Shown: positions 22,358-64,000, counted from the first letter of the stretch. The stretch: DNA of 64,000 nucleotides from an uncultured Chloroflexia bacterium (GCA_963728205.1 CAVSIV010000001.1:1-64000), one strand, 5' to 3'. The notes: generated by a model not told the origin, from the letters alone. Made by a program: numbers and translations.

Positions 22358-22769
22358 GGACAGACCCTCCCACAGGACCCACGCGCTCGTGTCGCCACCA
22401 CGCTAGCGGTGGGGTGGCCGCCCCGCCACCGGGGCCAGGCGTAACCCCGGAGATACCGTCGCCCGGCTCCGCCGTCGCCGCGCCGTCGAGGACGACCGGC
22501 TTGGGCGAGAGCGTCAGGGGGCAGTGCACGACCGCAGGGTGGGGGCTGCGCTCCGGGCGCGGTCATCGAACGAGATATGCGCAATGGCGCCCAGGTGACG
22601 GCGGACGGTCCGGGCGGCGCATCACGCCGGCGGCGCCGAGCGGCCGACGCGCCCGCGACTGGCGGCCGCTTGCCATCCCGGCCCGAAGGTCCCCCATAAC
22701 GTTCGACCCGCGGCCCTGAGCCGCCGCGCCGCGGTGCCGCACGATCCTCTTCGCAGAAGGAGGACTGCC

Positions 22770-23280
22770 ATGGTTGCCCGACCGCCCACCCCGTCCACGA
22801 CCGCCACCGGTGCCGACGTCGACGCCACGCGGGAGCGCGCCCGCGCCGACCTGCCCGAGGCGCTCGGCCGCGTGCTCGCCGACACGTTCGGCCTCTACCT
22901 GCAGACCCACCGCTACCACTGGAACGTGACCGGCGCGCAGTCCCGCACGCTGCACCTGATGTTCGAGGACCAGTACCGCGAGCTGTGGGAGGCGGTCGAC
23001 GCGATCGCCGAGCGCATGCGCGAGCTGGGGCTCGTGCCGCCCGCCAGCTACGCCGAGTTCACACGCCTGACGGCGCTGCCCGAGGACGCGGACGCGCCGG
23101 ACTCCGGCGCGATGGTCGACCGGCTGCGCGCCGGCCACGGCATCGTCGCGCGCACGGCGTGCCACGCGCTGGCGCTCGCGGACTGGGCCGGCGACCGCGT
23201 CACGGCCGATTCTGCTGACGCGCCGCGTCGCCGCGCACGACACCGCGGCGTGGACGCTCGGGAGCATGCGCACGGACTGA
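22770..23280 (+). CDS. dps: Dps family DNA-protection ferritin-like protein (one extra base near 23211)
   Basis: HRYHWNVTG..LHLMFEDQY..DAIAER. Removing one T gives TADLLTRRVAAHDTAAWTLGS..* ending at 23280. Strong AGGAGG RBS. Confidence 0.85.
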
Positions 23281-23638
23281 CAGCGCTTGCCGTCGGTTCC
23301 CGCACCGCGCCCGACGGGACGGCCGCGCACCCGGCCGTCGCGTCGCTGCACGTCCGGCGCTGCCCCGTGCGCGTGGTGCGCCGGGCGTGCGGGGCTCGTC
23401 GCCAATTGTTCTCCTGCGTACGCGTCCTCGCCGTTCTCTTGACCGGGCGGCCCGGGCGGATATTCTTCGTCCCGGGCACGGGACGGCCGCCGCTCGGCGT
23501 CTCCGGGCCAGGACGACTCCGCTACCACCCGCAGCGACCTCAGCCCGCCTCGACCTCCGGTGGAGGCGCGGGTGTCGCCTGCGCGCGGCGGCGGATCGCC
23601 CCCCACCCACAGGGCCGGGTTGAGAAGGAGAACGCCCC

Positions 23639-24439
23639 TTGGTGCTCAAGGCAATGCGAAGACGCTGGATGCGCTTCGGCTCGATTGGCCTCGTCGGCGC
23701 GATGCTGCTCGGCACCGCGGTGATCGCGAACGCGAGCAGCGGGCCGAGCACGCAGATCATGGCGTGCGTCCAGAACCACGGCCACGACGGTCCCGACGGC
23801 CATGGGAAGGCCGACGCCGGTCACGGCGCGACGATGTTCTACGTGACGTCCGCATCGGAGTGCAGCGGCAAGAACGAGTCGCTGCTGACGTGGAACGTCC
23901 AGGGTCCGCAGGGCGAAGTCGGGCCCGCCGGTCCTGCCGGCCCCGCCGGTCCGCAGGGCGACGTCGGACCGGCCGGGCCGGCGGGCCCCGCGGGTCCGCA
24001 GGGTGACACCGGTCCCGCCGGTCCGGCGGGCCCCGCGGGTCCGCAGGGTGACACCGGTCCCGCCGGTCCTGCCGGCCCGGCCGGCCCGCAGGGCGACGCG
24101 GGTCCCACCGGTCCCGCCGGTCCCGCCGGCCCCACGGGGCCGAAGGGCGACACCGGTCCCGCCGGCCCGGGCATCGAGGCGTACACGGTCGTCGTGAACC
24201 CGGATGGCACGACGCAGTTCGCGCACCCGGGCTTCTCGGTGACGCACGCGTCGACCGGCCAGTACACGGTCGCGTGGGCGGCCGGCACGTTCACCGGCGC
24301 CGCGCAGTGCTACATCCAGGGCATCGGCCAGAACGGCGTGATGAACCCGGAGGGCGCGAGCGGCAACGGCAGCGGTTCGTTCACCGTGACGTTCCCCGGG
24401 GACGCGCTGTTCACCGTGCTCTGCGCGAAGGTGCAGTAG
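23639..24439 (+). CDS. secreted collagen-like protein
   Basis: Signal peptide, Cys-containing N-domain, 30 uninterrupted Gly-X-Y triplets (23903-24172), beta-rich C-domain. Confidence 0.85.
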
Positions 24440-24447
24440 CGATTGAC

Positions 24448-24483
24448 GCGGGGATGGGGCCGGCAGGCCGGCCCCATCCCCGC
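24448..24483 (+). terminator. 16-bp perfect stem hairpin after the collagen-like gene
   Basis: GCGGGGATGGGGCCGG-CAGG-CCGGCCCCATCCCCGC. Confidence 0.7.
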
Positions 24484-24868
24484 CAGTCCCCGCCGCCGGG
24501 CTCCCCCCCGCTCGCCGCTCCCGCCGCCTTCGCTCCGCGAGCTCGCGCGGCCTGCGATCCGAGCAGGTCCCCCGCCGCGTGCTACGGTGGATCTGGCGCA
24601 TTCGCACGCGCCCTCAGACTCCCCCGGCAGGCGCGTCCCGCACACGTCCCCCCTCTCGAGATTCGAGCTCGGAAGGCGCCCGGTCCAGATGGACCGCGGT
24701 CATCCATGCCGGCGGCCCCCCGGCGACAGAACCATCAACCCGAGCACCGCGCGTTCGCGCGAGCAGCGATGCTCGCGCGCCCACACGCGCCCCACACGCG
24801 AGCACCGACCGGCGGACCCCGCCGGCCGACCGCCTCGACCGCACGGCGCGAGGCAGAGGGAGCCAGGC

Positions 24869-27340
24869 ATGGCCGAACGCTTCGACAAGTTCTCCGAGCG
24901 CGCCCGTCGCGTCCTCACGCTCGCGCAGGAAGAAGCGCAGCGGTTCAACCACAACTACATCGGCACCGAGCACCTGCTGCTCGGCCTCGTGCGCGACACC
25001 GACAGCGTCGCGGCCACGGTCCTCGCCGCACTCGATGTGGACCTCGGCCGGGTGCGCGCCTCCGTCGAGGCGGTGGTCGGCCAGGGCGACCACGCCGCGA
25101 CCGAGGAGATCGGCCTCACGCCCCGCGCGAAGAAAGTGATCGAGCTGGCCGTCGAAGAGGCCCGCCGGCTCTCCCACTCGCGCATCGGCACCGAGCACCT
25201 CCTGCTCGGCCTGGTCCGCGAGGGCGAGGGCATCGCGGCCGGTGTGCTCGAGAGCTTCGGCGTCAGCTTCGAGCGCGTGCGCAGCGAGACCACGCGCGTG
25301 CTCGCCGAGCAGTCGCCGGCCGCCGGCGATGCGCCGGGCGTCGCCGCGCAGGGCGCGCGCGCCCTGCGCACCCCCACGCTCGACCAGCTGAGCGTCGACC
25401 TCACGGCGCGGGCGCGTGCGGGCCAGATCGACCCGATCGTCGGGCGCGAGCGTGAGATCGAGCGCGTCGTCCAGGTCCTCTCGCGGCGCCGCAAGAACAA
25501 CCCCGTGCTGATCGGCGAGCCCGGCGTCGGCAAGACCGCGATCGCCGAGGGGCTCGCGCGGCGCATCGTCGCGGGCGACGTGCCGGACACGCTGCTCGGC
25601 AAGCGCATGCTCACGCTCGACATCGGACTGCTCGTCGCCGGCACCAAGTACCGCGGCGAGTTCGAGGAGCGCCTGAAGCGCCTGATCGAGGAGATCCGCC
25701 TCTCCGGCAACTGCATCCTGTTCATCGACGAGCTGCACATGCTCGTCGGCGCCGGCGCGGCGGAGGGCTCGGTGGACGCCGCGAACATCCTCAAGCCCGC
25801 CCTCGCGCGCGGCGAGATCCACGCCATCGGCGCGACGACCTTCGACGAGTACCGCAAGTACATCGAGCGCGACGCCGCGCTCGCCCGCCGCTTCCAGCCG
25901 GTGCGCGTCGACGAGCCCACGATCGCGGAGTCGATCCAGATCCTCGAGGGCATCCGCAGCGCCTACGAGGCGCACCACCGGCTCACGATCTCCGACGCCG
26001 CGATCAAGGCGGCGTGCGAGCTCTCGGCGCGCTACGTCGCCGATCGCTTCCTGCCGGACAAGGCGATCGACCTGGTCGACGAGGCGGCGGCGCGCGTGCG
26101 CATCCGCCACGTCGCGATGCCGCCGGCCGTCCGCGAGGCGCTGGCGGACCTCAACGCGCTGCGCCGCGAGAAGGAGCGCGCGGCGGCGGACGAGCACTAC
26201 GACGACGCCGGCCGGCTGCGGGAGCGCGAGCTCGAGCTGCAGGCGACGCTCGATGCGCTGAAGGCGGAGGCCGAGGGCGGCCGCGGCGACGCACCGACCG
26301 TCGGCGAGGACGACATCCGCAACGTGATCGCGCAGTGGACCGGCGTGCCGCTCTCGCGCCTCGCGAAGGACGAGTCGGCGCGCCTGCTCGAGATGGAGGC
26401 GTTCCTGCGCGAGCGCGTGATCGGCCAGGAAGAGCCGATCCGCGCCGTGTCGCGCGCCGTGCGCCGCGCGAGCGCCGGCCTCAAGGACCCCAACCGCCCG
26501 ATCGGCGTCTTCATGTTCCTGGGGCCGACCGGCGTCGGGAAGACGTACCTCGCGCAGATGGTCGGCGAGTTCATGTTCGGGTCGAAGGACGACATCGTCC
26601 GCATCGACATGTCCGAGTTCATGGAAAAGCACTCGCTGTCGCGGCTCGTCGGCGCGCCCCCGGGCTACGTCGGCTACGAGGACGGCGGCCAGCTCACTGA
26701 CCTCGTACGACGCAAGGGGTACTGCCTGATCCTGCTCGACGAGATCGAGAAGGCGCACCCCGACGTCTTCAACATGCTGCTGCAGGTCTTCGACGACGGG
26801 CACCTGTCCGACGCGAAGGGCCGCAAGGTCGACTTCCGCAACACCGTGATCATCATGACGTCGAACGTCGGCTCCGACCTGATCCGCAAGAGCGGACGCG
26901 TCGGCTTCGCGACGGCGGGCGACGACACGGCCGGCGTGGAGGACGCCTACCGGCGGATGAAGGAGCGCGTCGACGCGGAGATGAAGCGGGTGTTCCGCCC
27001 GGAGTTCCTGAACCGCATCGACGGCGCGGTGGTGTTCCGGGCGCTCGAGCGCACGCACATCCGCCAGATCGTGAGCCGCGAGCTCGACGACCTGCGCGAC
27101 AACCTGCGCGCGAAGGGGATGTCGCTCGAGGTCACGGACGCGCTGCTCGACCACCTCGGCGACGACGGGTTCGACTCCGTCCTCGGCGTGCGCCCGCTGC
27201 GCCGCGTGATCCAGAACCAGGTCGAGGACCGGCTCTCGGATGCCGTGCTGCAGGGCGCGTTCGGGGCCGGGGACACCGTGCGGGTCGACTACGTCGATGG
27301 CGAGGTGCGCTTCGCGCCGCTCGCCGCCGCCGCCGTGTAG
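24869..27340 (+). CDS. clpC: ATP-dependent Clp protease ATP-binding subunit ClpC
   Basis: Two Clp-N repeats ([10 protein letters not shown]), Walker A motifs GEPGVGKT and [11 protein letters not shown]-like middle domain, [10 protein letters not shown]. Confidence 0.93.
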
Positions 27341-30333: not shown

Positions 30334-31641
30334 ATGATCGGCGCGCGCGCGTTGCGCTCGTTCTTCGAGGCACCGCCGGGATCGACCCGGACCGAGCGCC
30401 ACAACTTCCACTACGCGTATCGCGAGGCGGCGCTGATCGGCGTGATCAACGCCGGCGGCACGTTCCTGCCGGTGTTCCTCGTCCGGCTCGGCGCGTCGAC
30501 CGTGCAGGTCGGCATGCTCACGGCGCTGCCGGCGCTCACCGCCGTGCTGCTCGCGATCCCGATCGGCGCGTTCCTGCAGAGCCGGCGCAACATCATCCCG
30601 TGGTACAGCCGGGGCCGCATCGGCGGACAGGCGGCGTTCGGCGCGGCGGCGCTGGCGTCGCTGCTGCTGCCGGCGGCGTACGTCGTGCCGGGCATCCTCG
30701 TGCTGTGGGGCGCCGCCACGCTGTTCTCGACGACGACGAACGTCGCGTTCAACGTCGTGATGAACGCGCTTTCCGGAACGCGCGGGCGGTTCGAGCTGAT
30801 GAGCCGGCGGTGGTCGATCGTCGGCTTCGCGACGGCCGCGAGCCTGGCGGTGGTCGGCTGGCTGCTCGGACGCGTGCGCTTCCCGCTGAACTTCCAGCTG
30901 GTGTTCGCCGGGCTCTCGCTGCTGGGTCTGTGGGCGTACACGTTCGGGTCGAAGCTGATCGTCCCCGACCACCCGCGCGTGGAGCGGAGCCCCGATGGGC
31001 CGGCGCTGCGCGCCCGCGTGCGCGAGATGGCGGGGCGGGTGCGCGGGCAGCCGGCGTTCATCGGCTTCGAGGCGCGTCGCGTCGTCTACGCGATGGGCAC
31101 GACGATGGCCCTGCCGCTGATCCCGCTCTACTACGTGCACGTGCTGCACGCGTCGAACGGCTGGATCGGGCTGATCGGCACGGCGCAGGCGCTGATGTTG
31201 CTGGTCGGCTACGCGACGTGGCGGCGGCAGTCGCGCCTGCGTGGCGCGCGGTTCGTGCTGACGATCGCGACGGCGGGCGCGGCGCTCTACCCCGCGGCGC
31301 TCGGCGTCACGCACGGCGTGGAGATCGCGCTGCTGCTCGGCGGCGTGGGGGCCGTCTTCACGTCGGGCGTGAACCTGGCGATCTTCGATCGCCTGATGAC
31401 CACGGTGCCGGAGGGGTACGGCGTCACCTTCAACTCCATCGATACGACGGTGGCGAACGTGGCGGGACTCTCGGCGCCGCTGCTGGGGGCGTTCATCGCC
31501 GACCGCATCGGGCTCGGGGGGGCGCTGGCCGTGACCTCGCTGATCGGGCTGTGCGGTGCCGCGCTGTTCGCGCTCGACCGCACGCCGGCGCCGCCGGCGG
31601 GCGTGCCGGAGCCGGCGGGGGCGGCGGCGAGCGGCGGCTAA
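30334..31641 (+). CDS. MFS transporter
   Basis: About 12 hydrophobic segments in two halves; FLVRLGASTVQVGML. Confidence 0.85.
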   Translation: MIGARALRSFFEAPPGSTRTERHNFHYAYREAALIGVINAGGTFLPVFLVRLGASTVQVGMLTALPALTAVLLAIPIGAFLQSRRNIIPWYSRGRIGGQAAFGAAALASLLLPAAYVVPGILVLWGAATLFSTTTNVAFNVVMNALSGTRGRFELMSRRWSIVGFATAASLAVVGWLLGRVRFPLNFQLVFAGLSLLGLWAYTFGSKLIVPDHPRVERSPDGPALRARVREMAGRVRGQPAFIGFEARRVVYAMGTTMALPLIPLYYVHVLHASNGWIGLIGTAQALMLLVGYATWRRQSRLRGARFVLTIATAGAALYPAALGVTHGVEIALLLGGVGAVFTSGVNLAIFDRLMTTVPEGYGVTFNSIDTTVANVAGLSAPLLGAFIADRIGLGGALAVTSLIGLCGAALFALDRTPAPPAGVPEPAGAAASGG

Positions 31642-31645
31642 CCGG

Positions 31646-31715
31646 CCCCGTCGCAAGCGGCGGCAGACACGCCGCCGATTCCGCCGGCGGCGCCCCGCCG
31701 CCGCTTGCGACGGGG
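31646..31715. terminator. long hairpin between the convergent MFS and egtD genes
   Basis: 19-bp perfect arms CCCCGTCGCAAGCGGCGGC / GCCGCCGCTTGCGACGGGG plus an inner GCCGCCG/CGGCGGC stem. Confidence 0.65.
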
Positions 31716-31752
31716 TGCCCGGGCGGGTAGCGCGCCCGCGGACGCTCGGAGC

Positions 31753-32772
31753 TCAGCGGCTCGGCCGCAGCAGCATCACGGCGAAGTACGCGCGCTCGTC
31801 GGTCCACGTGCACTCGGTCTGCAGGCCGGCCGACGCGGCGAGCCGGGCGAAGCGCCCCGGCGTGTACTTATAGGAGTACTCCGTGCGGACGCGCTCGGCC
31901 GGCGCGAACTCGAACCGCCGGCGGCCGATGTGCACGGTCTGGCGCTCGACGCTCTCGAGGTGCATCTCGATCCGGCTCGCCCGCGCATTGAAGAACGCAC
32001 AGTGCAGGAACCGGTCGAGCGCGAAGTCGGCGCCGAGCTCGCGGTTCGCGCGCACGAGCAGGTTGCGGTTGAAGTCGGCCGTCACCCCCTCGGCATCGTT
32101 GTAGGCGGGCTCGAGGATGTCGCGCGGCTTCGCGAGGTCGACGCCGATGAGCGCGGCGCCATCCGGTCCGCACACGCCGGTGATGCGGCGCAGGAAGCTC
32201 CACGCCTCGTGCGGCGTGAAGTTGCCAATCGTGGAGCCGGGGAAGTAGACGACGGTGCGCGCGGCGCCCTCCGGTGTCGGTGGGAGGGCGGCGTCCGCGG
32301 TGAAGTCGGCGCAGACCGGGCGCACGGCGAGGCCCGGGTAGTCGCGCACGATGCTCTCCGCCGCCGCGTCCAGGGCTGCGGACGAGATGTCGAGCGGCAC
32401 GTAGCCGGCCGGCGCATCCAGCGCGTCGAGCAGCAGGCGTGTCTTCACGCTCGCGCCGCTGCCGTACTCCACGACGCGGCACGCGGGGCCGAGCCGCGCG
32501 GCCATGTCGTCGACGTGCGTGCGCATGATCGCGAGCTCCGTGCGCGTGGGGTAGTACTCGGGGAGCGCGCAGATTGCCTCGAAGAGCTGCGAGCCGCGCT
32601 CGTCGTAGAAGTGCTTCGATGGCAGGGAGCGCGGGCGCGCGGACAGCCCGCGCAGCACGTCGGCGCGGAAGGCGTCGACGGGGGCCGCGGGTGCGAGCTG
32701 CGCGCCGAGGGGCGGCGCGGCGCGGTGGTGGCGCGGCATGGTGGCGGCGGTGTGGGCGTGGGGGGCGGTCAT
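31753..32772 (-). CDS. egtD: L-histidine N-alpha-methyltransferase
   Basis: LPSKHFYDERGSQLFEAIC.LPEYYPTRTE, EYGSG, FPGSTIGNF, AYND..GVT..FN, TEYSYKY. ATGA overlap with egtB. Confidence 0.92.
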   Translation of the reverse strand: MTAPHAHTAATMPRHHRAAPPLGAQLAPAAPVDAFRADVLRGLSARPRSLPSKHFYDERGSQLFEAICALPEYYPTRTELAIMRTHVDDMAARLGPACRVVEYGSGASVKTRLLLDALDAPAGYVPLDISSAALDAAAESIVRDYPGLAVRPVCADFTADAALPPTPEGAARTVVYFPGSTIGNFTPHEAWSFLRRITGVCGPDGAALIGVDLAKPRDILEPAYNDAEGVTADFNRNLLVRANRELGADFALDRFLHCAFFNARASRIEMHLESVERQTVHIGRRRFEFAPAERVRTEYSYKYTPGRFARLAASAGLQTECTWTDERAYFAVMLLRPSR

Positions 32773-34094
32773 GCGTCGCGCGCCAGTCGCACGCCGGCGT
32801 ACGGCCAGCGGGCCGAGGGTGGGAAGAAGTTGCGGTACGACGCGCGCACGTGGTCCCGCGGCGTCACGCACGCGCCGCCGCGCAACACCATCTGGCCCGA
32901 CATGAACTTCCCGTTGTATTCGCCGAGCGCGCCGGGCGGCGGGCGGTACCCCGGGTACGGGAGGTAGGCGCTCGACGTCCACTCCCACGCGTCGCCGAAC
33001 AGCTGCGCGGGGTGGCGCGCCGCGTGCGCCGGCGCCACGACCGGATGCAGGCGGCCGTCGTCGACGAAGTTGCCGGCGATCGGATGGCTGCGCGCGGCCA
33101 CCTCCCACTCGAACTCCGTCGGGAGCCGGGCGTCGGCCCAGCGGGCGAAGGCGTCGGCCTCGTAGTGCGACACGTGCACGACGGGCTGGTGCGGGTCGAG
33201 CGGCCGCATCCCCCCGAGCGTCATCTCCCACCACGCGCCGTCGTCGCGCTGCTCCCAGTAGAGCGGCGCGCGCCAGCCCCGCTCGCGGACGGTCGTCCAC
33301 CCGTCGGACAGCCAGAGCTCCGGGCGCTCGTAGCCGCCGTCGCCCATGAACTCCAGGTACTCGGCGTTCGTGACGAGGCGCGAGGCGAGGCGCCATGGCG
33401 CGAGGAACACCTGGTGCACGGGCCCCTCGTTGTCGAAGTGGAAGCCGGGGCCGTCGTAGCCGACCGTGTAGAGCCCCTCGTCGTACGCGCACCACTCGAG
33501 GGCGGACGCGGGTCGCTGCGACGGCGCGGCCGCTTCCTCGCGCAGCGCCGGTCGCAGCGGGTTCGTCCAGAACACGTGCTGGATGTCCATGAGCATCAGC
33601 TCCTGGTGCTGCTGCTCGTGGTGCAGGCCGGTGACCACCGCGTCGCGCACGGGGGCATCGAGGCCGCGTTCGAAGAGCTGCTCCATCTGCCGGTCGACGT
33701 GGTCGCGGAAGGCGTAGACCTCCGCGACGGTCGGGCGTGAGAGCAGGCCACGGTCGGGGCGGGGGAACTGGGGGCCGGCGAGGTTGTAGTAGGAGTTGAA
33801 GAGGTACGGGTACTCGAGGCGATACGGACGGGCGTCGGGCAGCGCGTCCTTCAGCACGAAGGTCTCGAAGAACCACGTGGTGTGGGCGAGGTGCCACTTG
33901 GTGGGGCTGACGTCGGGCATCGTCTGCACGACGTAGTCCTCGGTTGCCAGCGTGCGGCAGATGTCGGCGGAAGCGGCGCGGACGCGGCGGTAGTGGGCCT
34001 CGATGGACTCGGGGCCACCGCCCGGTGCGGGGGCCGACGCGGGGGCGGACGGCGGCGCGGCGAGGGGGCCGGCGGGGGTCGGGGCGTGCTTCAC
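32769..34094 (-). CDS. egtB: ergothioneine biosynthesis sulfoxide synthase
   Basis: SPTKWHLAHTTWFFE, HHEQQHQEL iron site, FGE-like domain, GEYNGKFM, RASYRNFF. Start approximate. Confidence 0.9.
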   Translation of the reverse strand: MKHAPTPAGPLAAPPSAPASAPAPGGGPESIEAHYRRVRAASADICRTLATEDYVVQTMPDVSPTKWHLAHTTWFFETFVLKDALPDARPYRLEYPYLFNSYYNLAGPQFPRPDRGLLSRPTVAEVYAFRDHVDRQMEQLFERGLDAPVRDAVVTGLHHEQQHQELMLMDIQHVFWTNPLRPALREEAAAPSQRPASALEWCAYDEGLYTVGYDGPGFHFDNEGPVHQVFLAPWRLASRLVTNAEYLEFMGDGGYERPELWLSDGWTTVRERGWRAPLYWEQRDDGAWWEMTLGGMRPLDPHQPVVHVSHYEADAFARWADARLPTEFEWEVAARSHPIAGNFVDDGRLHPVVAPAHAARHPAQLFGDAWEWTSSAYLPYPGYRPPPGALGEYNGKFMSGQMVLRGGACVTPRDHVRASYRNFFPPSARWPYAGVRLARDA

Positions 34095-34183
34095 GACGAT
34101 GATCCTCTGCCCGCGGATGCGGGCGGCGAGCGATGCGGGGGTGGGTGCGGCCGGGCGATGCCGGCCGCGGACGGGCCTGCCCG

Positions 34184-34639
34184 TTACCAGTGCTCGAGCA
34201 AGTCGTAGGCGAGGCCCGTCGCGGCGGCATAGACGAAGTGGTGCCAGGCGTCGATCCCGATGGCTTCGCCGCCCCACTTCCAGATGGGGGAGGAGAGGCC
34301 GAGGCGCGGCAGCATCGTGATCTCCGCGCCCCAGACGCCGCCGAAGTGCGCGAGCGTCACCCACGGCTCGCGCAGCCCGGAGGCGGCGAGCGCGCCGCGC
34401 GCGACGCCCCAGGCGACGCCGTAGCCCCAGTGGGTCAGGTTGCCGAGGCGTGCCTCGGCGTCGTCGCTCACCGGCTTGATCTCCAGCACCTGCTCGACCG
34501 CCTGCGCCGGTGCCGTGCTCGGCCCGCGGTCGCGCAGGCGCCTCTCGACCATGCTGGAAGCGGTCATCGCGGCGGTGCCGGCAATGCCGGCGACGACGCC
34601 CTTGCCGATGTCGTCGGCGATCGTGCTGGGCCTGATCAC
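34184..34639 (-). CDS. hypothetical membrane protein
   Basis: GVVAGIAGTAAMT, HWGYGVAWG, HHFVYA; several TM segments. Confidence 0.7.
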   Translation of the reverse strand: MIRPSTIADDIGKGVVAGIAGTAAMTASSMVERRLRDRGPSTAPAQAVEQVLEIKPVSDDAEARLGNLTHWGYGVAWGVARGALAASGLREPWVTLAHFGGVWGAEITMLPRLGLSSPIWKWGGEAIGIDAWHHFVYAAATGLAYDLLEHW

Positions 34640-34979
34640 GCTGGTGCTCTCTTCTCCGCGGTGGGGCGCAAGCGAACGGCGACACGGCGGGTGGGCACGC
34701 ACGCCGGGAGGGGTCGGTCTAGGCGCCGGCCATCGTGCGGTGCTCGCCCGACGGCCGCGGGAACAACCTAGCGGGGCCGGGCTTGCATTCCCGTCAACCC
34801 GCGGCCGGCCGACCTTCCATCCGGCTCGCGGAGCCGTTGCAGTGCGCTCCGCGAGGCGGGGCATCCGCCGCCGCGGCGACCCCGGGCATACCTCTCGCCG
34901 GTATGACGTGGGCCGATGCCCCGGGAAGCAGCCGCGGGGCCGCCTCTTCCGTCGTGTGCGTTGCCTGCGTCGCGTGTGG

Positions 34980-56773: not shown

Positions 56774-56814
56774 GCCGCCAGCGAAGCACACCCGCGCAGT
56801 GGTGTCGCCCCGCG

Positions 56815-56984
56815 GCGTGCTGCGAGCGGCGCCGGGTGACGGCGCTGAGTCGCCGCGAAGCATGCTGCGAGCGGCGCCGGGTCACGGCGCTGAGGCGGAC
56901 CGTCGCTCAGCATCCTCGCCGGATGCCGCTCGAAGCCGGCCGCGGCGGGGCGACTCGGCGTCGTGTCCCGGCGCCGCTCGCAGC
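56815..56984. repeat. REP/BIME-like array: two 45-bp units, a tail and one inverted unit
   Basis: Unit TGCTGCGAGCGGCGCCGGGTCACGGCGCTGAGTCGCCGCGAAGCA at 56818 and 56863; inverted degenerate copy at 56949-56984. Confidence 0.85.
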
Positions 56985-56991
56985 GGGCTCC

Positions 56992-57489
56992 TTACGCCTC
57001 GCGCCCGTAGCCCATGGCGACGGCGAACTGCCACGCGTCCAGGTCCGGCGTCGTGACGCCCTGCTGCCCGAGTGCGAGCTTGATCTCCGTGCGGTGCTCG
57101 ACGCCGTGCTCCACGGCGTGCACGAGGAAGAACGACCGCGGGAACCGGTACGTCTTGCCCGCGTACGGCAGGTCGACCTCGACGTCGGCATCGAGCGACT
57201 CGGCGATGCGCACGAGGTCGTCGCTCGACGCGCGGGCGGCGTCGGCGAGAGCGTCCCAGCCGGGCCAGGCGCTGGCGCGATTGAGCTCGCCCTCGTTCTG
57301 ACGCCCCTCGGTGCGCAGCACGAACGTCTGCTGTCCGCCGACGACGTGTACGAACAGCTCGCGCAGCGGACCGGACGTGCCGGGAATGCGTGCGTCGAGG
57401 TGCGCGTCGTCGAGCGTGCGACAGGCGTCAATCAGCGTGAGCGTCGCCCACCGGTTGTAGCGGAGCATCTCGGCGAGCGGCGCGTTCAT
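56992..57489 (-). CDS. DinB family protein
   Basis: MLRYNRWA..H..HAVEHGVEHRTEI...LGQQG..PDLD. GGAGG RBS. Confidence 0.87.
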   Translation of the reverse strand: MNAPLAEMLRYNRWATLTLIDACRTLDDAHLDARIPGTSGPLRELFVHVVGGQQTFVLRTEGRQNEGELNRASAWPGWDALADAARASSDDLVRIAESLDADVEVDLPYAGKTYRFPRSFFLVHAVEHGVEHRTEIKLALGQQGVTTPDLDAWQFAVAMGYGREA

Positions 57490-57511
57490 GGCAACCTCCG
57501 TGAGGGCGGGT

Positions 57512-57681
57512 GTGCTGCGAGCGGCGCCGGGTCACGGCGCTGAGTCGCCGAGAAGCGTGCTGCGAGCGGCGCCGGGTCACGGCGCTGAGTCGCCGCGAAG
57601 CATGCTGCGAGCGGCGCCGGGTCACGGCGCTGAGGCGGACCGCCGCTCAGCATCCTCACCGGATGCCGCTCGAAGCCGGCC
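57512..57681. repeat. REP/BIME-like array: three 45-bp units plus the same tail
   Basis: Units at 57513, 57558, 57603. 57555-57681 matches 56815-56941 with 3 mismatches. Confidence 0.88.
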
Positions 57682-57699
57682 CCGGGGGCTGCTCGCCGC

Positions 57700-57840
57700 G
57701 CTGCCGAGGTGGCGCAGCGAGAACTGCTCGTACGCCTCGCGCTCGAAGGCGGGGATGCCCGTGCGGCCGCCGGGGTTGACGTGCATCGTCTTCTCGCGCG
57801 AGCCGAAGGCGTCGTACAGCGCGACGCCGGCTTCCCGGCC
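57700..57840 (-). pseudogene. C-terminal remnant of an alpha/beta hydrolase
   Basis: REAGVALYDAFGSREKTMHVNPGGRTGIPAFEREAYEQFSLRHL, with an in-frame stop just upstream. The expected catalytic His of NPGxH reads Arg. Confidence 0.55.
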
Positions 57841-58098
57841 GCATCATAGGCGCGCGGTAGGCCCGAGGCGCCGTGCATCCCACGCACTCCCGCGGATTCC
57901 CCGCGGACGCAGTCCGCGGCTGGCGCCGCGCTTCTGTCGGCGGCGTATCTGCCGCCGCTGCGGGTGACGTTCATGCGCGCACGGCGCCCCCGGGGCATGC
58001 TGACTGCCGTGCGGAACGCGAGCAACGTGAGCTGCCCACGAGGTCATCGTCGCACACGGCAGGACCGACGCCTGCCGCTCGCCGGAGTGGGAGGGTGC

Positions 58099-60204
58099 CT
58101 ACGCCACCGCGCGCAGCGCCGGACCGCCGCCGGCGCGCCGCTCGCGCACCCACGCCGCGAACCCGTCGGCGGGGAGCGGACGGCCGAGGTGGTAGCCCTG
58201 CGCGGTGTCGCAGCCCAGCGAGCGCAGCAGCTCGAGGCTCGCCTCGTCCTCCACGCCCTCGGCGACCACCTCCAGCCCCAGCGCGTGGCCGAGCGTCACG
58301 GCCGTCGCGACGATCGCCGCCGACCGCCGATCCCCGGCGATCGGCTGCACGAACGAGCGGTCGATCTTCAGCGCGTCGACCGGCAGGTCCTTCAGGTAGC
58401 TCAGCGCGGAGTAGCCGGTGCCGAAGTCGTCGATCGCGACGCCGACCCCCATCGCCCGCAGGCGAGAGAGCGCGCCGGTCACGAGCACGCGGTCGAGCAT
58501 GATCCCGCTCTCGGTGATCTCGACGGTGAGGGCGTCGTGGCCGAGCCCGGCGTCGCGCAGCAGCGCGGCGATCAGCTCGGGGAGCGCGGGGTCCTCGAGG
58601 TCGCGCATCGAGAGGTTGACGGCGAGCGTGACCGCGAGCCCCTGCACGCGCCACGCGCTGCACTGCTCGATCGCGAGCGCGAGCACGCGCCGCGTGAGCG
58701 GGCGGATCAGCCCGGTCTGCTCGGCCAGCGGGATGAAGTCGTCGGGCGGGACGAGGCCGCGCAGCGGGTGCATCCAGCGCACCAGCGCCTCGGCGCCGAC
58801 GACCCGCCCGCTGCCGCAGTCGACCTTCGGCTGATAGTGGAGGACGAGCGCGCCGTTCGCCGTCGCGGCTGCGGCGTCGGCCGGCTCGATGGCCTGGCGC
58901 AGCTCGCCGATCAGCGCGAGCCGCTCGGGGCTGTGCCGTGCCTCGTGCTCCGGCGCGTAGACGGCGTACGCCTGGCCGGGCCGCTTCGCCACGTACATCG
59001 CGATCTCGGCGCGCCGGAGCAGCGCGCTCGCGTCGCCGCCGTGCTCGGGCGCGACCGTCACACCGATGCTCGCCGACACCTCGAGCGAGTAGCCCTCGGC
59101 GACGAACGGGTGCTCGATCGCGAGCGACAGCCGTCGCGCGACGGCCTCCGCCTCTTCGACGTCCATGTCCGGCAGCAGCACCGCGAACTCGTCGCCGCCG
59201 AGACGCGCGACGACGTCCTCGGGCCGCAGCGCCATGCGCAGGCGGGGGCCAATCTCGAGCAGCAGGCGGTCGCCCGAGGCGTGCCCGAAGGTGTCGTTGA
59301 TTTCCTTGAAGCGGTCGACGTCGAGCAGCAGCAGCGCGATCCGCGCGCCGTCGCCGGCCAGCGCCGCATCGAGTCGCTCCTGCAGCAGCCGGCGGTTCGG
59401 CAGGCCGGTCAGCGAGTCGTAGAGCGCGAGGTGCTCGAGCCGGTCGGCCTGGTCCTCGAGCGTGCGGATCGTCTCCTCCGAGCGGCTCGCGTAGAAGGCG
59501 AGCGTGAAGCGCATGACGAAGACGGGCAGGACGAACATCGCCGTTCCCAGCACGCCGAGCCCGCCGTGGGTCGCGCCGAGGAACGCGCCGGTGAGGCCGA
59601 CCAGCACGCTCGTCGGCCAGTACCAGCCCGTGTCGCGGGCGACGGCGAAGAGCGAGCGCTCGGAGTGCGCGCTGATGATGGCGGAGACGAGGCCGACGTT
59701 GACGACGGAGTACGCGCCGACGGCACACGTCGCGGCGACCAGCCGCGCCGCCATGCCGTCGGCGCCGGCGGCGAGCAGTGCGACGTAGACCGCGGTCGCC
59801 ACCCCGGCCGAGAGCACGGAGACCGCGAGGTTGAACAGCACCTTGTCCGGGCGCCGCGTGCCGGCCATCGCGACGTGGACCGCCGCGGAGGCGAGCGCGA
59901 CCAGCGGCGCGGTTGCCGGTGCGGCGGTGACCGCGGCTGCGGTCGCGGCGACGGCGAGGGAGAACGAGAACGTCTCGGCGCGCGCGCGGTAGATGCGCAC
60001 GCGGAGCAGCTCGCCCGCGACGCCGAGCGCCGCGATCGGCAGCAGCGTGCCCCACGGCGCGCCCCGCGCGACGGCGAGGAGCGCCCAGGCGAGTGCCGGC
60101 AGCGAGGTGGCGATCGTCCCCCAGAGGACGGCGTCGGCCGTCCGCAGGTGCGGCCGGCCGGTTGCCGTGCGGCGCGTCGTCGTCAGCCCGGCGCCCTCAG
60201 CCAT
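58099..60204 (-). CDS. membrane-sensor GGDEF-EAL diguanylate cyclase/phosphodiesterase
   Basis: Several N-terminal TM helices; YDSLTGLPNR, NDTFGH..GD, RLGGDEF; YQP, EALVRW, EITE, DDFGTGYS, KIDRSF, EGVE, QGY. Confidence 0.92.
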   Translation of the reverse strand: MAEGAGLTTTRRTATGRPHLRTADAVLWGTIATSLPALAWALLAVARGAPWGTLLPIAALGVAGELLRVRIYRARAETFSFSLAVAATAAAVTAAPATAPLVALASAAVHVAMAGTRRPDKVLFNLAVSVLSAGVATAVYVALLAAGADGMAARLVAATCAVGAYSVVNVGLVSAIISAHSERSLFAVARDTGWYWPTSVLVGLTGAFLGATHGGLGVLGTAMFVLPVFVMRFTLAFYASRSEETIRTLEDQADRLEHLALYDSLTGLPNRRLLQERLDAALAGDGARIALLLLDVDRFKEINDTFGHASGDRLLLEIGPRLRMALRPEDVVARLGGDEFAVLLPDMDVEEAEAVARRLSLAIEHPFVAEGYSLEVSASIGVTVAPEHGGDASALLRRAEIAMYVAKRPGQAYAVYAPEHEARHSPERLALIGELRQAIEPADAAAATANGALVLHYQPKVDCGSGRVVGAEALVRWMHPLRGLVPPDDFIPLAEQTGLIRPLTRRVLALAIEQCSAWRVQGLAVTLAVNLSMRDLEDPALPELIAALLRDAGLGHDALTVEITESGIMLDRVLVTGALSRLRAMGVGVAIDDFGTGYSALSYLKDLPVDALKIDRSFVQPIAGDRRSAAIVATAVTLGHALGLEVVAEGVEDEASLELLRSLGCDTAQGYHLGRPLPADGFAAWVRERRAGGGPALRAVA

Positions 60205-60236
60205 CGCGCTCCGTCCCGTTCAGTCCCGCTCATCCG

Positions 60237-61807
60237 TCAGTTGTCGCCGTGCGCGTCCCAGTAAGACGAGTCCCAGTACGAGCTATCCCAGTAGGAGCTG
60301 TCCCAGTACGAGGAATCCCAGTAGGACGAATCCCAGTACGAGCTGGCGAAGCTGACCGTGTCGCCGAGCGAGGTGGTCAGGCGCGTCAGCGACGAGAAGT
60401 CGCTCGCGGGGATCACGCCCGCGTTGGCCGACGGCACGTTGCCCTGCGCGGCGCGCTGCAGCGCCGCCAGCACGTTGACCTCGCCGGCGGCGTCGGGCCG
60501 GTCCGGGTACGTGCCGGCGGTGCTCGTGACGAGTGCCTTCACCTGGTCCGGCGTCAGGCCCGGGGTGCGCTGCAGCAACAGCGCGACCTCGCCGCTCACC
60601 ACCGGCGCGGACATCGACGTGCCGCTGAGGTGGATGTACTGGCCGTCGACGACGCTCGCCGGCGCCTCGCGTGCGAGCGTGCTGTTCGGCGCGAGCGTCG
60701 ACGTGACGTGCATGCCGGGGGCGACGACGTCGGGCTTGGCGGTGCCCTCGAGCGTGCGGCCGCGGCTGCTGAACGTGCAGAGCGAGTCGTCGGCGGTCGA
60801 TGCGGTCGCCGAGTCGTTCACGCAGCCGACGGTGATCACGAACGGGTCGTTGCCCGGCGCGTGCCACTCGGCATCCGCCGTCGCGCCGCGGTTGCCGGCG
60901 GAGGCGACGACGACGATGCCCTCGGCCCACAGCTGCTCGACGGCGGCGTCGACCGGGCTCGTGACGTAGCTGCTCGGGCCGCCGGCCTCGACCGAGAGGT
61001 TGACGACGCGGATGCCGTACTCGGCGTGGTAGCGGGCGACCCACTGCAGGCCGCGGATGAGGTCGGACTCGCTGGCGCTGCCGGCGTCGTCGCTGAGTCT
61101 TCACGCCGACGACGTTCGCCTGCGGCGCGATGCCGAGGTAGTGCCCGGTCGCGGCGTCGTCGCCCGCGATGATGCCGGCGACGTGCGTGCCGTGGCCGTG
61201 GTGGTCGACGGCGTCGGTGGCGCGGGAGTTCACGCTGACGGCCGTGACGCGACCCGCGAGATCCGGGTGCGACACGGCGACGCCGGTGTCGACGACCGCG
61301 ACCGTCACGCCGGCGCCGGTGGCCCCGACGGACGGGTCGTTCCACGCCTGGTCGGCGTGCACGGCGGCCGGGTACGCGGTAGCGAGCGGCGCGGGATTCG
61401 ATCCCGCTGTCGAGGTGCAGCACGGGGCCATCCGGCGAGATGTAGAGGATGTTCGAGTCGAGGGCGAGGGTGAGGACGTCGCGCAGGCGGAGCTGGAGCA
61501 CCGCGCTGTTGATGAACGGGAAGTCGTCGACGACGGTGGCACCGACGAGTTGAGCGATCAGCCCGGTGGACTCGGTCGTTCCCGGCTTCTTCTGGACGAT
61601 CACGCGCACGAGCCGGGTGGGCTCGACCTTCGCGCCGTACTGCAGCTCGGGGCTGACCGGGAGCAGGGTGTTGAGGGTGCTGGTCAGGCTGCCGAGCAGC
61701 CCGCCGCCGCCGAGCAGTCCGCCGGCGTTGGTGGCGCCGGTGGTCGAGGCCATGGTCGCGACGACCACCACGAGGAGCAGCGCGACCAGTCGCTGGATGC
61801 GATTCAT
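60237..61807 (-). CDS. secreted S8 (subtilisin-like) serine peptidase with (SSYWD)6 C-terminal tail; two single-base insertions (near 61097 and 61397)
   Basis: Signal peptide and prodomain, VAVVDTG (Asp), HGTHVAG (His), SAGN, SGTSMSAPVVSG (Ser), spread over three frames. Length is 3n+2. Confidence 0.88.
60255..60344 (-). repeat. six tandem 15-bp units encoding SSYWD
   Basis: AGCTCGTACTGGGAT, TCGTCCTACTGGGAT, TCCTCGTACTGGGAC, AGCTCCTACTGGGAT, AGCTCGTACTGGGAC, TCGTCTTACTGGGAC. Confidence 0.95.
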
Positions 61808-62106
61808 GGGGACCCGCCTTGTCGGCCTGGCGCCCGCGGGTCTCCATCCTCGGCGCAAGGCGTGCTGTCACCGCCGATCCGTGGCAGCGAGTTGGGGCTC
61901 TGTCACGAAGCATCGACAGGGAGGTGGTCTTTCTGTAGGCCGGGAGACATTGCAATTCGCGCGGGCTGAGGATGCCGCCCCTGGGTGTGGGGTAACGCCG
62001 GAACTGCAACGCGGATCACGGTTCCCTCACGACCTCTTTACTCGTGTCTTATGCCTGGGCGGGTAGCCTCGAAGCTGCTTCTCCCTGCGGCCCCTGCGAG
62101 GTGGCG

Positions 62107-62262
62107 ATGTCACTCCTCCCGGCACTTCTCCTCCTCGGCGGAGCCGCGGTCGCGGCCGCGCGCCGGGCGGCGACGCGTCAGCCGCGCCGCGTCCCGGTGC
62201 GCGTCCGCGATGGAGAGCGCGACGGGGCCGGCGGGCCCGCGGATTGGATCCGCCGCGAGTGA
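62107..62262 (+). CDS. possible small membrane protein (51 aa)
   Basis: GAGG RBS; hydrophobic N-terminus MSLLPALLLLGGAAVAAA; stop overlaps the next start (GTGA). Confidence 0.45.
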   Translation: MSLLPALLLLGGAAVAAARRAATRQPRRVPVRVRDGERDGAGGPADWIRRE

Positions 62263-64000
62263 GCAGCCCCAGCCTCCCGTATCGAGCGGCGTCCGCTCGA
62301 GCGGGCGCCTTTGCCATTCCCGCGCTGCGCTGGTGGGCCCGCTGGGCGCCGCTGCTCGGTGTCGTCGCGCTCGCCTTCGCGCTCGATGCCTGGCGCATCT
62401 CGATGTCGGGCTACGGCAACACCTACTACGCCGCCGCGACGCGCTCGATGACCCTCTCGTGGAAGGCCTTCTTCTTCGGCGCGTTCGACCCCGGCAGTTT
62501 CATCACCGTCGACAAGCCGCCGTTCTTCCTCTGGATCGACGCGCTGTCCGCGCGGGCGTTTGGCTACTCGTCGTGGTCGACCTTGCTGCCGAGCGCGTTC
62601 GCCGGCGCGGCGACCGCCGGCCTGCTGTGGGTCACGGTGCGGCGGCACCTCGACGCCTTCGCCGCGACGATCGCGGGCGTGGTCTTCGCGCTGACGCCGA
62701 TCGTGGTCGCGGTCGACCGCCTCAACCTGCCGGAGCCGTTCTACGTGCTGGCGCTGGTCGGCGCCGGCGCCGCGGTGCTGGAGTCGCTGCGGCGCGAGCG
62801 CTGGTGGGCGTGGGCGGCCCTCGGGGGGGTGCTGGTCGGGGTGGCGTTCAACACGAAGATGCTCGCGGGCTGGATCCCCGGGCCGGCGCTCGTGCTCGCG
62901 CTGATCGTCGGCGTGGGGTGGGGCGATCTCTTCGCGTCGCGGGCCGGGTGGCGCGAACGCTGGCGCGCGAGCGCCTGGAGCGACCGCTGGCGCGCGGGCT
63001 GGCTGCCCGTCGCCGGGCGGATCGCGGTGTTCGGCGTGGTCGCGCTCGTGGTCTCGCTGTCGTGGGTGGTCGTGGTCGACGCGTGGCCGGCGTCGTCGCG
63101 GCCGTACATCGGCGGCAGTGCGAACAACACGGTGAGCGACCTGGTGCTCGGTTACAACGGCTTGGGCAGGGTCGAGGGCAACAGCCCGTTCGGCGGGAAC
63201 AACCCCTTCGCGGGCGGCCGCGGCGGCGGCTTCGCGCCCTTCCGCAACCCGTTCGCGCCGCCGCCGCCGGCGCCGAGCAGCGGAGGCTTCGCGCTGCCCT
63301 TCGGGCTGCACGTCCCCAACCCGTTCTCCTCCGGCTCCCAGAACGCGACGCCGGCGCCGTTCGGGGGCATCACGCGCGCGCCCGGGCCTACGACCGGCAT
63401 CGGCGCCGGCGGGATCATCGCCGGGCGGCCGGACACGTGGCGCATGTTCGACGCCGCGAACGGGCCGCAGATCGGGTGGCTGCTGCCGTTCGCGGTGCTC
63501 GGCGGGCTGCTCGCGCTGGTCGCATGGTGGCCGGACCGCATGCGCCGCGCGGCGATGGTGCTGTTCCTCGGGTGGGTGCTGCTGTTCGGCGGCGTCTTCT
63601 CGGAGGCGCAGGGCATCTACCACAGCTACTACACCTACGCGCTCGCGCCGGGCATCGCCGTGCTGGTCGGCGCCGGCGCGCTCGCCGCCACCGACCTCGT
63701 GCGACGCAGCCGCTGGTGGCTGATCGCGCCCGCGGTGCTCGTGCTGGCGACGCTCGCGGTGCAGCTCCACCTCGAGTCCCGCGCGCCGTTCTACTACGGC
63801 TGGCTGCGCCCGTGGGCGATCGGCGGCGCGTTGGTCGGCCTGGCGCTGCTCGCCGCCGCCACCGTCGTGCGCCGCGTGCCGGCGCGCGCCGCGATGGCGG
63901 TCGTCGTCGCCGCGCTGCTGCTGCTGCCGGCGGGCTGGGCGCGCGGCGAGGCCGCGCACGCGTCGATGAACACGACGCTGCCGCAGGCCGGCCCGCGCGT
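62259..64000 (+). CDS. GT-C fold membrane glycosyltransferase (ArnT/PMT-like, YkcB type), runs off the window end
   Basis: GYGNTYYAAATRSMTLSWKAFFFGAFDPGSFITVDKPP, VAFNTKML, RPYIGGS.NN..DL.LGYNGLGR, HSYY. Frame open to 64000, so absent from the ORF track. Confidence 0.87.
   Translation, partial: MSSPSLPYRAASARAGAFAIPALRWWARWAPLLGVVALAFALDAWRISMSGYGNTYYAAATRSMTLSWKAFFFGAFDPGSFITVDKPPFFLWIDALSARAFGYSSWSTLLPSAFAGAATAGLLWVTVRRHLDAFAATIAGVVFALTPIVVAVDRLNLPEPFYVLALVGAGAAVLESLRRERWWAWAALGGVLVGVAFNTKMLAGWIPGPALVLALIVGVGWGDLFASRAGWRERWRASAWSDRWRAGWLPVAGRIAVFGVVALVVSLSWVVVVDAWPASSRPYIGGSANNTVSDLVLGYNGLGRVEGNSPFGGNNPFAGGRGGGFAPFRNPFAPPPPAPSSGGFALPFGLHVPNPFSSGSQNATPAPFGGITRAPGPTTGIGAGGIIAGRPDTWRMFDAANGPQIGWLLPFAVLGGLLALVAWWPDRMRRAAMVLFLGWVLLFGGVFSEAQGIYHSYYTYALAPGIAVLVGAGALAATDLVRRSRWWLIAPAVLVLATLAVQLHLESRAPFYYGWLRPWAIGGALVGLALLAAATVVRRVPARAAMAVVVAALLLLPAGWARGEAAHASMNTTLPQAGPR

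Follow-up and report, generated by a model that had tools for sequence, protein, structure and literature searches.

We describe here a two-gene unit of an uncultured Chloroflexia bacterium, found at positions 58,099 to 61,807 of a 64,000-nucleotide stretch of DNA (GCA_963728205.1, CAVSIV010000001.1:1-64000) to which we refer as the window. The first gene encodes a subtilase that carries, close to its C-terminus, a tail of six exact copies of the pentapeptide SSYWD. The second encodes a membrane protein in which a sensor domain is followed by the GGDEF and EAL domains of cyclic di-GMP (c-di-GMP) turnover. Our results show that many lineages have conserved the pairing of a subtilase bearing a tail of tryptophan (Trp) pentapeptides with this sensor domain, that the pairing is specific to tails with a Trp at every fifth residue, and that it is independent of the output domain of the sensor. 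The unit is built from known domains and an uncatalogued tail, as a candidate protease-coupled or peptide-type input to a membrane sensor. Outside subscription journals, which our literature search did not cover, we found no description of such a pairing. Its retention in many soil bacteria suggests a signalling unit that has not been described before.

Conservation of the pairing

Within the phylum we surveyed 401 genomes with a family alignment of the subtilase, and 60 of them match at E<=1e-60, the unpublished genome G308 included. The survey listed 81 rows, from which three rows of the source genome (G000) and one row of G308 were dropped, and the remaining 77 loci were taken with about 6 kb on each side. 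A subtilase was counted as tailed when it contained a chain of at least four Trp residues at period 5, and the sensor was detected with a hidden Markov model (HMM) iterated from seven seeds.

A period-5 Trp tail is present in 40 of the 77 subtilases, which come from 30 genomes and 17 family codes. In 34 of these 40 the membrane domain lies on the same strand and starts between -3 and +786 nt past the stop codon. Three of the tailed loci lacking a sensor (L181, L192 and L199) have less than 700 nt of downstream DNA, so that 34 of the 37 tailed subtilases with enough downstream sequence have the membrane domain downstream. Among the other 37 relatives, which lack a tail, have one of period 6 or 7 or are broken genes, just two adjoin the membrane domain: L213, with an eight-residue GGVGYYYL repeat, and L226, in which a gap of Ns hides the tail. 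Related genomes are not independent, and these adjacency figures are to be read as counts and not as a test. The sequence-only reading had proposed that tail-bearing homologues be checked for linkage to such sensors, and the comparison of 34 of 40 tailed with 2 of 37 untailed relatives bears this linkage out.

Closer to the source genome, the orthologous subtilase of the same-genus genome G002 is intact (61% identity), has an (ATYWD)n tail and lies directly 5' of the orthologous MASE-GGDEF-EAL gene. In G002 and G003, paralogous subtilases with GIRWD tails precede proteins of 880 and 904 aa composed of transmembrane, PAS, GGDEF and EAL regions. The source genome itself has a further locus (L017, G000:C1:692000-706000), where two tandem SITWD-tailed subtilases alternate with three stand-alone membrane proteins, one of them encoded upstream. 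By BLASTP these share homology with the N-terminal domains found in the GGDEF-EAL proteins (E 1e-19 and 8e-6). The middle one of these membrane genes is frame-broken relative to its twin, and a gene for an extracytoplasmic-function-type sigma factor (Sigma70_r2, E 4.6e-17) stands at the downstream end.

Relatives with other C-termini deserve a short description of their own. Twelve loci of the sample have Trp tails of period 6 or 7 (L201, L204, L216, L218, L227-L232, L234 and L235) and no sensor neighbour within about 6 kb; their units include GGDTWT/GGQTWT, GSYSTWA/GSYSSWA, EWAFLG and GRLAWSG, and one of these loci is followed by an AAA-TPR protein. In untailed relatives of the clade (L221, L225, L233, L236-L243 and L245-L249) the C-terminus consists of a Pro-rich linker and Gly-Cys, then a hydrophobic stretch with basic residues, possibly a C-terminal membrane anchor or sorting signal, and the sensor adjoins none of them.

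In the protein database, 3317 of 8000 candidates scored match the subtilase family at E<=1e-30; those that have a name are annotated as AprX or S8 family peptidase. We also scanned public genomes, blind to protein annotation, for four WD units at 15-nt spacing. This gave at least 121 stretches, 80 of them with flanks, and five of the 80 hold family subtilases. A first HMM of the membrane domain matched two of the 80 flanked loci, both adjoining a family subtilase (records of Symbiobacteriaceae and Chloroflexota). About 75 of the 80 are 15-nt DNA repeats in other frames or contexts, and the scan serves as background only.

The Trp-repeat tail

The tail is read from the translation of the first gene:

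60255..60344, minus strand: six exact SSYWD units, the last 30 codons ahead of AHGDN and the stop codon

The repeats that the sequence-only reading had noticed are exact in the protein at 60344-60255. Selection maintains these exact peptide units. The six 15-nt units share 79.6% identity at the DNA level and 100% at the protein level, with all differences synonymous and falling at unit positions 1, 2, 3, 6 and 15. Just 6 of the 45 possible single changes in a unit would be synonymous, and none of 1,000,000 random placements of an equal number of changes preserves SSYWD in all six units. The pattern YWD-x2-YWD-x2-YWD occurs nowhere else in the 4.1-Mb genome, and a reversed control gives 0 matches. 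In the G002 ortholog the visible ATYWD units are identical in DNA, and an assembly gap interrupts the array.

Among the 120 closest relatives in the database, 116 have a period-5 Trp tail, and the consensus units are of about 50 kinds; SSYWD itself is shared by one of the 120. The longest uninterrupted chains in these relatives range from 3 to 29 units, and at least 104 of the 120 keep all four catalytic motif patterns of the protease. Paralogous modules within one genome mostly differ in their unit, as for example SVAWN, STSWN and SASWN in G300. No Pfam or NCBIfam family matches the tail. In particular, the Pfam pentapeptide family gave no match at E<=0.05 in five tailed relatives with tails of 8 to about 26 units.

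The tail looks unstructured in a structure prediction. We modelled a paralogue from the source genome with AlphaFold (12-sequence alignment), and the mean predicted local distance difference test score (pLDDT) was 69.2, with a confident catalytic core. Its ten-unit tail has a pLDDT of 31-36 and no secondary structure.

Some tailed relatives of 534-1239 aa additionally have an N-terminal ice-binding-like domain (PF11999) ahead of the subtilase domain (P0006, P0015, P0020, P0023, P0029, P0032, P0033, P0037, P0052, P0075 and P0086).

The sensor domain and its outputs

The second gene is a 701-aa open reading frame (ORF) at 60204-58099 on the minus strand, with the following domains:

59443..60150, minus strand: MASE9-like membrane sensor domain, residues 19-254 (weak Pfam match, homology and AlphaFold model)
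58972..59427, minus strand: GGDEF domain, residues 260-411, with GGDEF motif and RxxD site (Pfam PF00990, E 1.7e-44)
58177..58866, minus strand: EAL domain, residues 447-676, with EAL, DDFGTG and EGVE motifs (Pfam PF00563, E 3.3e-72)

In the translation we read RLGGDEF, with RPED as the RxxD site five residues upstream. The GGDEF, RxxD, EAL, DDFGTG and EGVE motifs are taken here in their customary functional meaning. With a PF00990 match and the GG(D/E)EF motif the protein is predicted to be a GGDEF diguanylate cyclase, and with a PF00563 match and all three EAL-type motifs it would likewise qualify as an EAL phosphodiesterase. Pfam matches and translation thus agree with the earlier description of a multi-helix membrane N-terminus followed by intact GGDEF and EAL motifs. 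The Pfam scan of the protein found neither a HAMP nor a periplasmic domain.

To the Pfam family MASE9 (PF20972) the sensor domain of the window scores 17.2 bits (E 0.005), below the cut-off of 24.3. Its paralogue in the source genome reaches 32.5 bits. The 43 partner ORFs include eight that match MASE9 at E<1e-3, and five of these pass the cut-off (26.1-38.7 bits), while the iterated HMM joins the sensor domains at E 1e-39 to 1e-106. Because eight of the 43 partners match and five pass, we take the sensor domain to be probably a branch of MASE9 or a sister to it. In the model its helices span residues 19-46, 51-66, 84-94/96-114, 119-145, 151-181, 195-216 and 218-254. By our own reading of the topology, this would fit the MASE9 layout of about six membrane helices and a short intramembrane hairpin with promiscuous outputs.

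The output domains of the 43 partner ORFs are as follows:

GGDEF-EAL, often with PAS or GAF: 15 of 43
GGDEF only: 7 of 43
no output domain (stand-alone): 6 of 43
HD-GYP-PAS-GGDEF: 5 of 43
HD-GYP: 4 of 43
GGDEF, a second copy of the membrane domain, and HD-GYP: 3 of 43
histidine kinase (HisKA-HATPase): 3 of 43

The pairing is therefore independent of what the sensor is fused to. Since the outputs vary while the subtilase partner stays, the membrane domain is best read as the input module. The linkage holds in one direction, and the domain itself occurs in 159 of the 401 genomes (the unpublished G308, G264, G182, G210 and G380 included).

Several loci have two sensor copies in one protein, typically in the order sensor-GGDEF-sensor-HD-GYP, in which a maker and a breaker of c-di-GMP each stand behind their own copy. 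Such proteins are found at L177, L182, L183, L207, L064, L080, L252, L254 and L257, some of them with no subtilase nearby.

The sensor domain models confidently as a helical bundle resembling the substrate-binding S components of energy-coupling factor (ECF) transporters. The AlphaFold2 model (46-sequence alignment) has a pLDDT of 89.4 and a predicted template modelling score of 0.86. We compared it with 48,161 chains using VIA-align, in which helical bundles can reach a Z-score of about 13 by arrangement alone. All of the top 14 chains are ECF S components or NikM/CbiM (Z 15.5-10.1, 152-187 residues aligned, root-mean-square deviation (rmsd) 3.3-4.2), among them 4m5c_A (Z 15.5, rmsd 3.3, 187 residues), 4hzu_S (14.2) and 4z7f_A (10.1). 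The next, unrelated chain follows at Z 8.3, and the top family covers nearly whole chains. The best Foldseek match in the PDB is weak and is the riboflavin S component TmRibU (E 8.5e-3, template modelling score 0.43/0.59). S components bind small ligands in an intramembrane, outward-opening pocket, so that the predicted fold fits a peptide or Trp-motif ligand. The fusion to GGDEF-EAL favours a receptor, and we did not class the domain as an ECF transporter subunit.

The subtilase gene and its frame breaks

Both genes lie on the minus strand. The subtilase occupies 61807-60237, with its ATG at 61807 and its stop codon at 60239-60237, and the next ATG follows at 60204. The coordinates confirm the two-gene unit with a 32-bp gap which the sequence-only reading had proposed. 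A crude scan, uninformative for this organism, found no terminator-like (57300-62300) and no promoter sites. The parts of the subtilase gene and the gap are the following:

61394..61807, minus strand: segment 1, in one frame, with start codon, signal peptide (MNRIQRLVALLLVVVVATMA..., by eye) and prodomain
61398..61403, minus strand: frame break 1, where one base was gained or two were lost by a CCC run (abutting tblastn pieces in different frames)
61096..61413, minus strand: segment 2, in a second frame, with catalytic Asp (VVDTGV) and His (HGHGTH)
61097..61099, minus strand: frame break 2, one extra base (tblastn; soil-metagenome contig)
60240..61100, minus strand: segment 3, in a third frame, with oxyanion Asn (SAGN), catalytic Ser (GTSMSAP), the conserved SANxG linker and the tail
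60205..60236, minus strand: intergenic gap of 32 nt with a GGAG-type ribosome-binding site ahead of the ATG (read by eye)

The prodomain match in segment 1 is weak (Pfam Fervidolysin_NPro-like, E 0.0096), and in tblastn this segment corresponds to residues 44-127 in P0001 and to residues 67-152 in the G002 ortholog. P0001 is the closest database relative, an intact protein of 522 aa with 64% identity and an (SSYWD)5 tail. Segment 2 matches positions 1-87 of the Peptidase_S8 profile (E 6.9e-14, 52.3 bits) and is 57-69% identical to intact relatives, and segment 3 matches positions 90-274 (E 1.8e-34, 119.9 bits) with 61-64% identity. Both pieces score above the Pfam PF00082 gathering cut-off of 21.8 bits, by which the predicted product belongs to Peptidase S8. 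As these motifs are usually defined, Asp, His, Asn and Ser are all present in the order of the S8 family. The closest solved relatives of the catalytic domain are of the Tk-SP type (PDB 3afg and 9ues, E 2e-25 and 9e-26); these subtilisin-like proteases differ from the family described here in having no Trp-pentapeptide tail. The best NCBIfam model, the mycosin of the type VII secretion system, scores 83-129 bits, far under its cut-off of 278.75.

The signal peptide, prodomain, catalytic triad, linker and repeats of the earlier description are thus all seen, spread over three frames and not in one ORF. With each of the two intact relatives, the G002 ortholog and P0001, tblastn gives three abutting pieces in three frames. 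Because the pieces abut and no sequence is lost between them, there are exactly two local breaks.

This raises the question whether the subtilase is a real and recent pseudogene in the source strain, which would leave the GGDEF-EAL protein an orphan and the module a relic. This question is separate from that of the ligand, and we consider such a loss possible while leaning against it. It would agree with the presence of two frame breaks in a single gene at a distance of 300 nt and with the state of the other window genes, most of which are covered by Pfam over their full length in single ORFs (43 window ORFs; the MFS, EgtB-like and EgtD-like genes were looked at), so that the assembly is not riddled with indels. 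No further clear break was found in the window by Pfam coverage of these 43 ORFs and inspection of 31400-32800. Against it, we found no in-frame stops or other lesions within the three pieces, and all catalytic residues and six perfect repeats are retained.

Further evidence comes from soil-metagenome contig sets, which belong to three runs from a single study and have word shares of 0.07-0.09. One contig (run X1, 243 nt, 3 mismatches, about 99% identical, depth 2.6) has one base fewer at 61097. The shorter sequence restores ...VKISDDAGSASESDL..., which resembles VKIANDAG of the G002 ortholog and VKIADDQG of P0001. This is a single contig, and break 1 has no informative cover at the level of reads. 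The source assembly (4.1 Mb in 6 contigs, 89% complete, 5.6% contaminated) contains another frame-broken member of the family, the stand-alone sensor at G000:C1:~699400-700350, when compared with its tandem twin. A near-identical contig lacks the extra base at break 2, which makes old decay less likely than an assembly error or a lesion that arose recently at the strain level, and we think that the breaks are probably an assembly error or a strain-level polymorphism. The sequence-only reading had named a dead gene with real frameshifts as fatal to its proposal; the frameshifts are present in the assembly, and the second of them is absent from the environmental contig.

Possible function of the tail

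We suggest that the two genes might be co-transcribed and form one signalling module. The first would encode a prepro-subtilase that is exported and ends in an unstructured array of identical Trp pentapeptides (SSYWD x6), and the second a polytopic membrane protein whose MASE9-like sensor domain would drive the GGDEF-EAL pair. The tail would be presented outside the cell, where it may stay on the protease or be cut into short Trp peptides by the active site of the protease itself. The tail or its fragments could then be bound in a membrane-embedded, outward-opening pocket of the sensor, and the occupancy of this pocket would shift the balance between synthesis and breakdown of c-di-GMP. From the sequences and the structure models, we give about an even chance to the proposal that the exported tail, attached or cut, serves as the ligand in the sensor pocket and controls the turnover of c-di-GMP. 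The part of this proposal with strong support is that protease and sensor work together, to which the conserved adjacency and the constancy of the partner across output changes point; the rest we infer.

An expectation of the sequence-only reading was that repeat and sensor would co-vary. A signal of this kind is present, but it is confounded and not specific to the sensor. In partial Mantel tests on 40 pairs, tail correlates with sensor given the protease (r 0.27, p 2e-4). Among 20 independent nearest-neighbour pairs, the ratio of sensor to protease divergence rises with tail change (Spearman 0.58, p 0.007), a confounded result in that the ratio also increases with overall divergence, and loci with two sensor copies inflate it. 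We also looked for charge complementarity between the residue after the Trp and basic sensor columns and rejected it: the top columns, R118 and R73 in the protein of the window, are probably cytoplasmic, and the pattern is confounded by descent.

Several observations weigh against a tail-derived ligand. Three tailed loci with about 6 kb of downstream sequence (L180, L194 and L211) have no sensor and unrelated neighbours, for example a glycosyltransferase and a Thr-tRNA ligase. Conversely, 17 of 20 further sensor loci have no subtilase within about 5 kb upstream and three have a tailed one, and the sensor loci lacking a subtilase include a MASE9-GGDEF gene of the source genome itself. The tail also correlates with the protease given the sensor (r 0.21, p 6e-4); it co-varies with the protease about as much as with the sensor, so that co-inheritance can explain the signal. 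A common helical-bundle fold shows no function, and the model of the tail is based on 12 sequences. By the sensor model and our own reading of its charge distribution, the outside loops are a few residues long, so that a large tethered tail would need to reach into the bilayer. Finally, the subtilase of the window lies in three frames with two breaks, and if these breaks are real the module is inactive in the source strain.

In a more specific form of this proposal, the tail would be a multi-copy pro-peptide. Once exported, the subtilase would cut its own tail at each Trp and free identical pentapeptides for the S-component-like pocket of the MASE9-type sensor, and the fast-diverging units would act as private channels. 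The idea of private channels comes from the roughly 50 unit variants in the 120 closest relatives and the different units of paralogous modules. We put this form forward tentatively, as a rather doubtful one.

It could be argued that information flows the other way, or not at all, with the tail tethering the protease to the sensor. The cytoplasmic state (c-di-GMP or phosphorylation) or simple anchoring would then set where and when the protease acts, much as LapD retains LapG, and nothing would be passed from tail to sensor. The tail is multivalent, the anchor-like C-termini of untailed clade relatives suggest a role in surface retention, and stand-alone sensor proteins with no output make up 6 of the 43 partners and occur in the source genome, all of which would suit such docking. 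On the other side, partner outputs of several unrelated kinds (GGDEF, EAL, HD-GYP and HisKA-HATPase) are the signature of an input domain and not of a c-di-GMP receptor. In addition, the GGDEF and EAL motifs are intact, unlike those of LapD, and there is no periplasmic domain or HAMP. We regard docking as unlikely.

Less probable again, and in our view quite unlikely, is that the ligand comes from other substrates. Here the subtilase would degrade external proteins, the S-component-like domain would sense or import the resulting peptides or aromatic amino acids, and the tail would serve for anchoring at the membrane interface through its Trp residues or for autoinhibition. An S-component-like fold suits small ligands, the catalytic motif patterns are widely kept among the relatives (at least 104 of 120), and the sensor domain is also found with no subtilase. 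Such a scheme leaves unexplained both the preference of the sensor for period-5 Trp tails (34 of 40 against 2 of 37) and the selection on exact units.

That the tail is a folded repeat domain, either a pentapeptide-repeat-like beta-helix or a cell-wall-binding module, with the adjacency due to shared regulation only, is very improbable: rotated units like A-S-W-S-G resemble the A(D/N)LSG pentapeptide-repeat consensus and some tails have 20-29 units, but the Pfam pentapeptide family does not match the tails searched, a beta-helix would need more than 4-6 units, the number of copies varies from 3 to 29, the units are exact and not degenerate, and the modelled tail has low confidence and no strands.

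Relation to known systems

The proposed tail ligand would join several lines of earlier work. In the parts of their preprint available to us, Galperin and Chou present MASE9 as a promiscuous sensor with ligand-binding proposed within the membrane and a ligand that is not known (bioRxiv 10.1101/2021.11.05.467447). The sensor domain described here resembles MASE9 as portrayed there in being an N-terminal polytopic domain with tiny loops, intramembrane polar residues and a likely hairpin, fused to HD-GYP, GGDEF-EAL or kinase modules. It differs from MASE9 (PF20972) in its link to a subtilase and its S-component-like fold, and those parts of the preprint describe no partner protein.

A second comparison is with the 5TMR-LYT receptors (BtsS/YpdA; PF07694), for which the available passages of PMC11109136 give an ECF substrate-binding-subunit fold fused to GGDEF, EAL, PAS, GAF or kinase modules. 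The ligand site is proposed there to lie inside the bundle, with small metabolites such as pyruvate as ligands, and the term MASE9 does not occur in that article. An S-component-type fold in a membrane sensor fused to signalling modules is common to both. The 5TMR-LYT receptors belong to another sequence family and, as far as those passages go, have no dedicated protease partner.

An extracytoplasmic protease tied to a membrane GGDEF-EAL protein also recalls the LapD/LapG system. In Pseudomonas fluorescens, LapG is a DUF920 Cys protease and LapD an inside-out c-di-GMP receptor with a periplasmic domain, HAMP and degenerate GGDEF and EAL domains. The unit described here has instead an S8 protease, a sensor with neither periplasmic domain nor HAMP, and intact motifs, and so falls outside the LapD/LapG class.

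If peptides are released, the proposed module would share with AgrC/AIP (autoinducing peptide) and the Phr pentapeptides of Bacillus the use of short exported peptides, and a loop-poor polytopic receptor. These systems use short exported peptides, dedicated proteases and lineage-specific signals, and the AgrC domain is likewise loop-poor and polytopic. The AIP and Phr precursors are separate small genes with one peptide each, and Phr peptides act inside the cell on Rap proteins. To our knowledge none of these systems has several peptide copies in an array that is fused to the protease itself, and none signals to MASE9 or a c-di-GMP enzyme.

In a census of c-di-GMP stimuli from 2022, MASE-type domains are still listed with no known purpose, and the passages of it that we could consult do not describe the pairing (PMC8846402). 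The repeat tail offers a concrete candidate signal that can be synthesised, in a pairing that spans many lineages and output types. The S-component-like fold would extend the published link between transporters and receptors to a second sensor family and may indicate where the binding site sits. If the pro-peptide form of our proposal were true, bacteria would have a further, new class of peptide signalling, acting on c-di-GMP enzymes, HD-GYP phosphodiesterases or kinases, and a ligand would be known for the first time for an orphan MASE domain.

Other features of the window

Downstream of the unit, a 45-nt sequence in tandem (x2.7 at 57512-57634 and x2.0 at 56804-56894) flanks a DinB-family gene on both sides. 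The core of this sequence is the hairpin GCGCCG-GGTCA-CGGCGC. With up to 2 mismatches allowed, a 24-nt core has 21 copies in the genome and a reversed control gives 0, and in appearance the core is a dispersed element like the repetitive extragenic palindromes.

Elsewhere in the window, an ORF at 23624-24436 on the plus strand matches the collagen triple-helix repeat (E 1.5e-13) and sits between a ferritin-like ORF (22599-23720) and a ClpB/ClpC-type AAA+ gene (24440-27337). At 31753-34718 on the minus strand, a protein with DinB_2 and FGE-sulfatase domains (EgtB-like) is followed by a methyltransferase-like ORF, which by eye we take to be EgtD-like, so that the two may be an ergothioneine pair.

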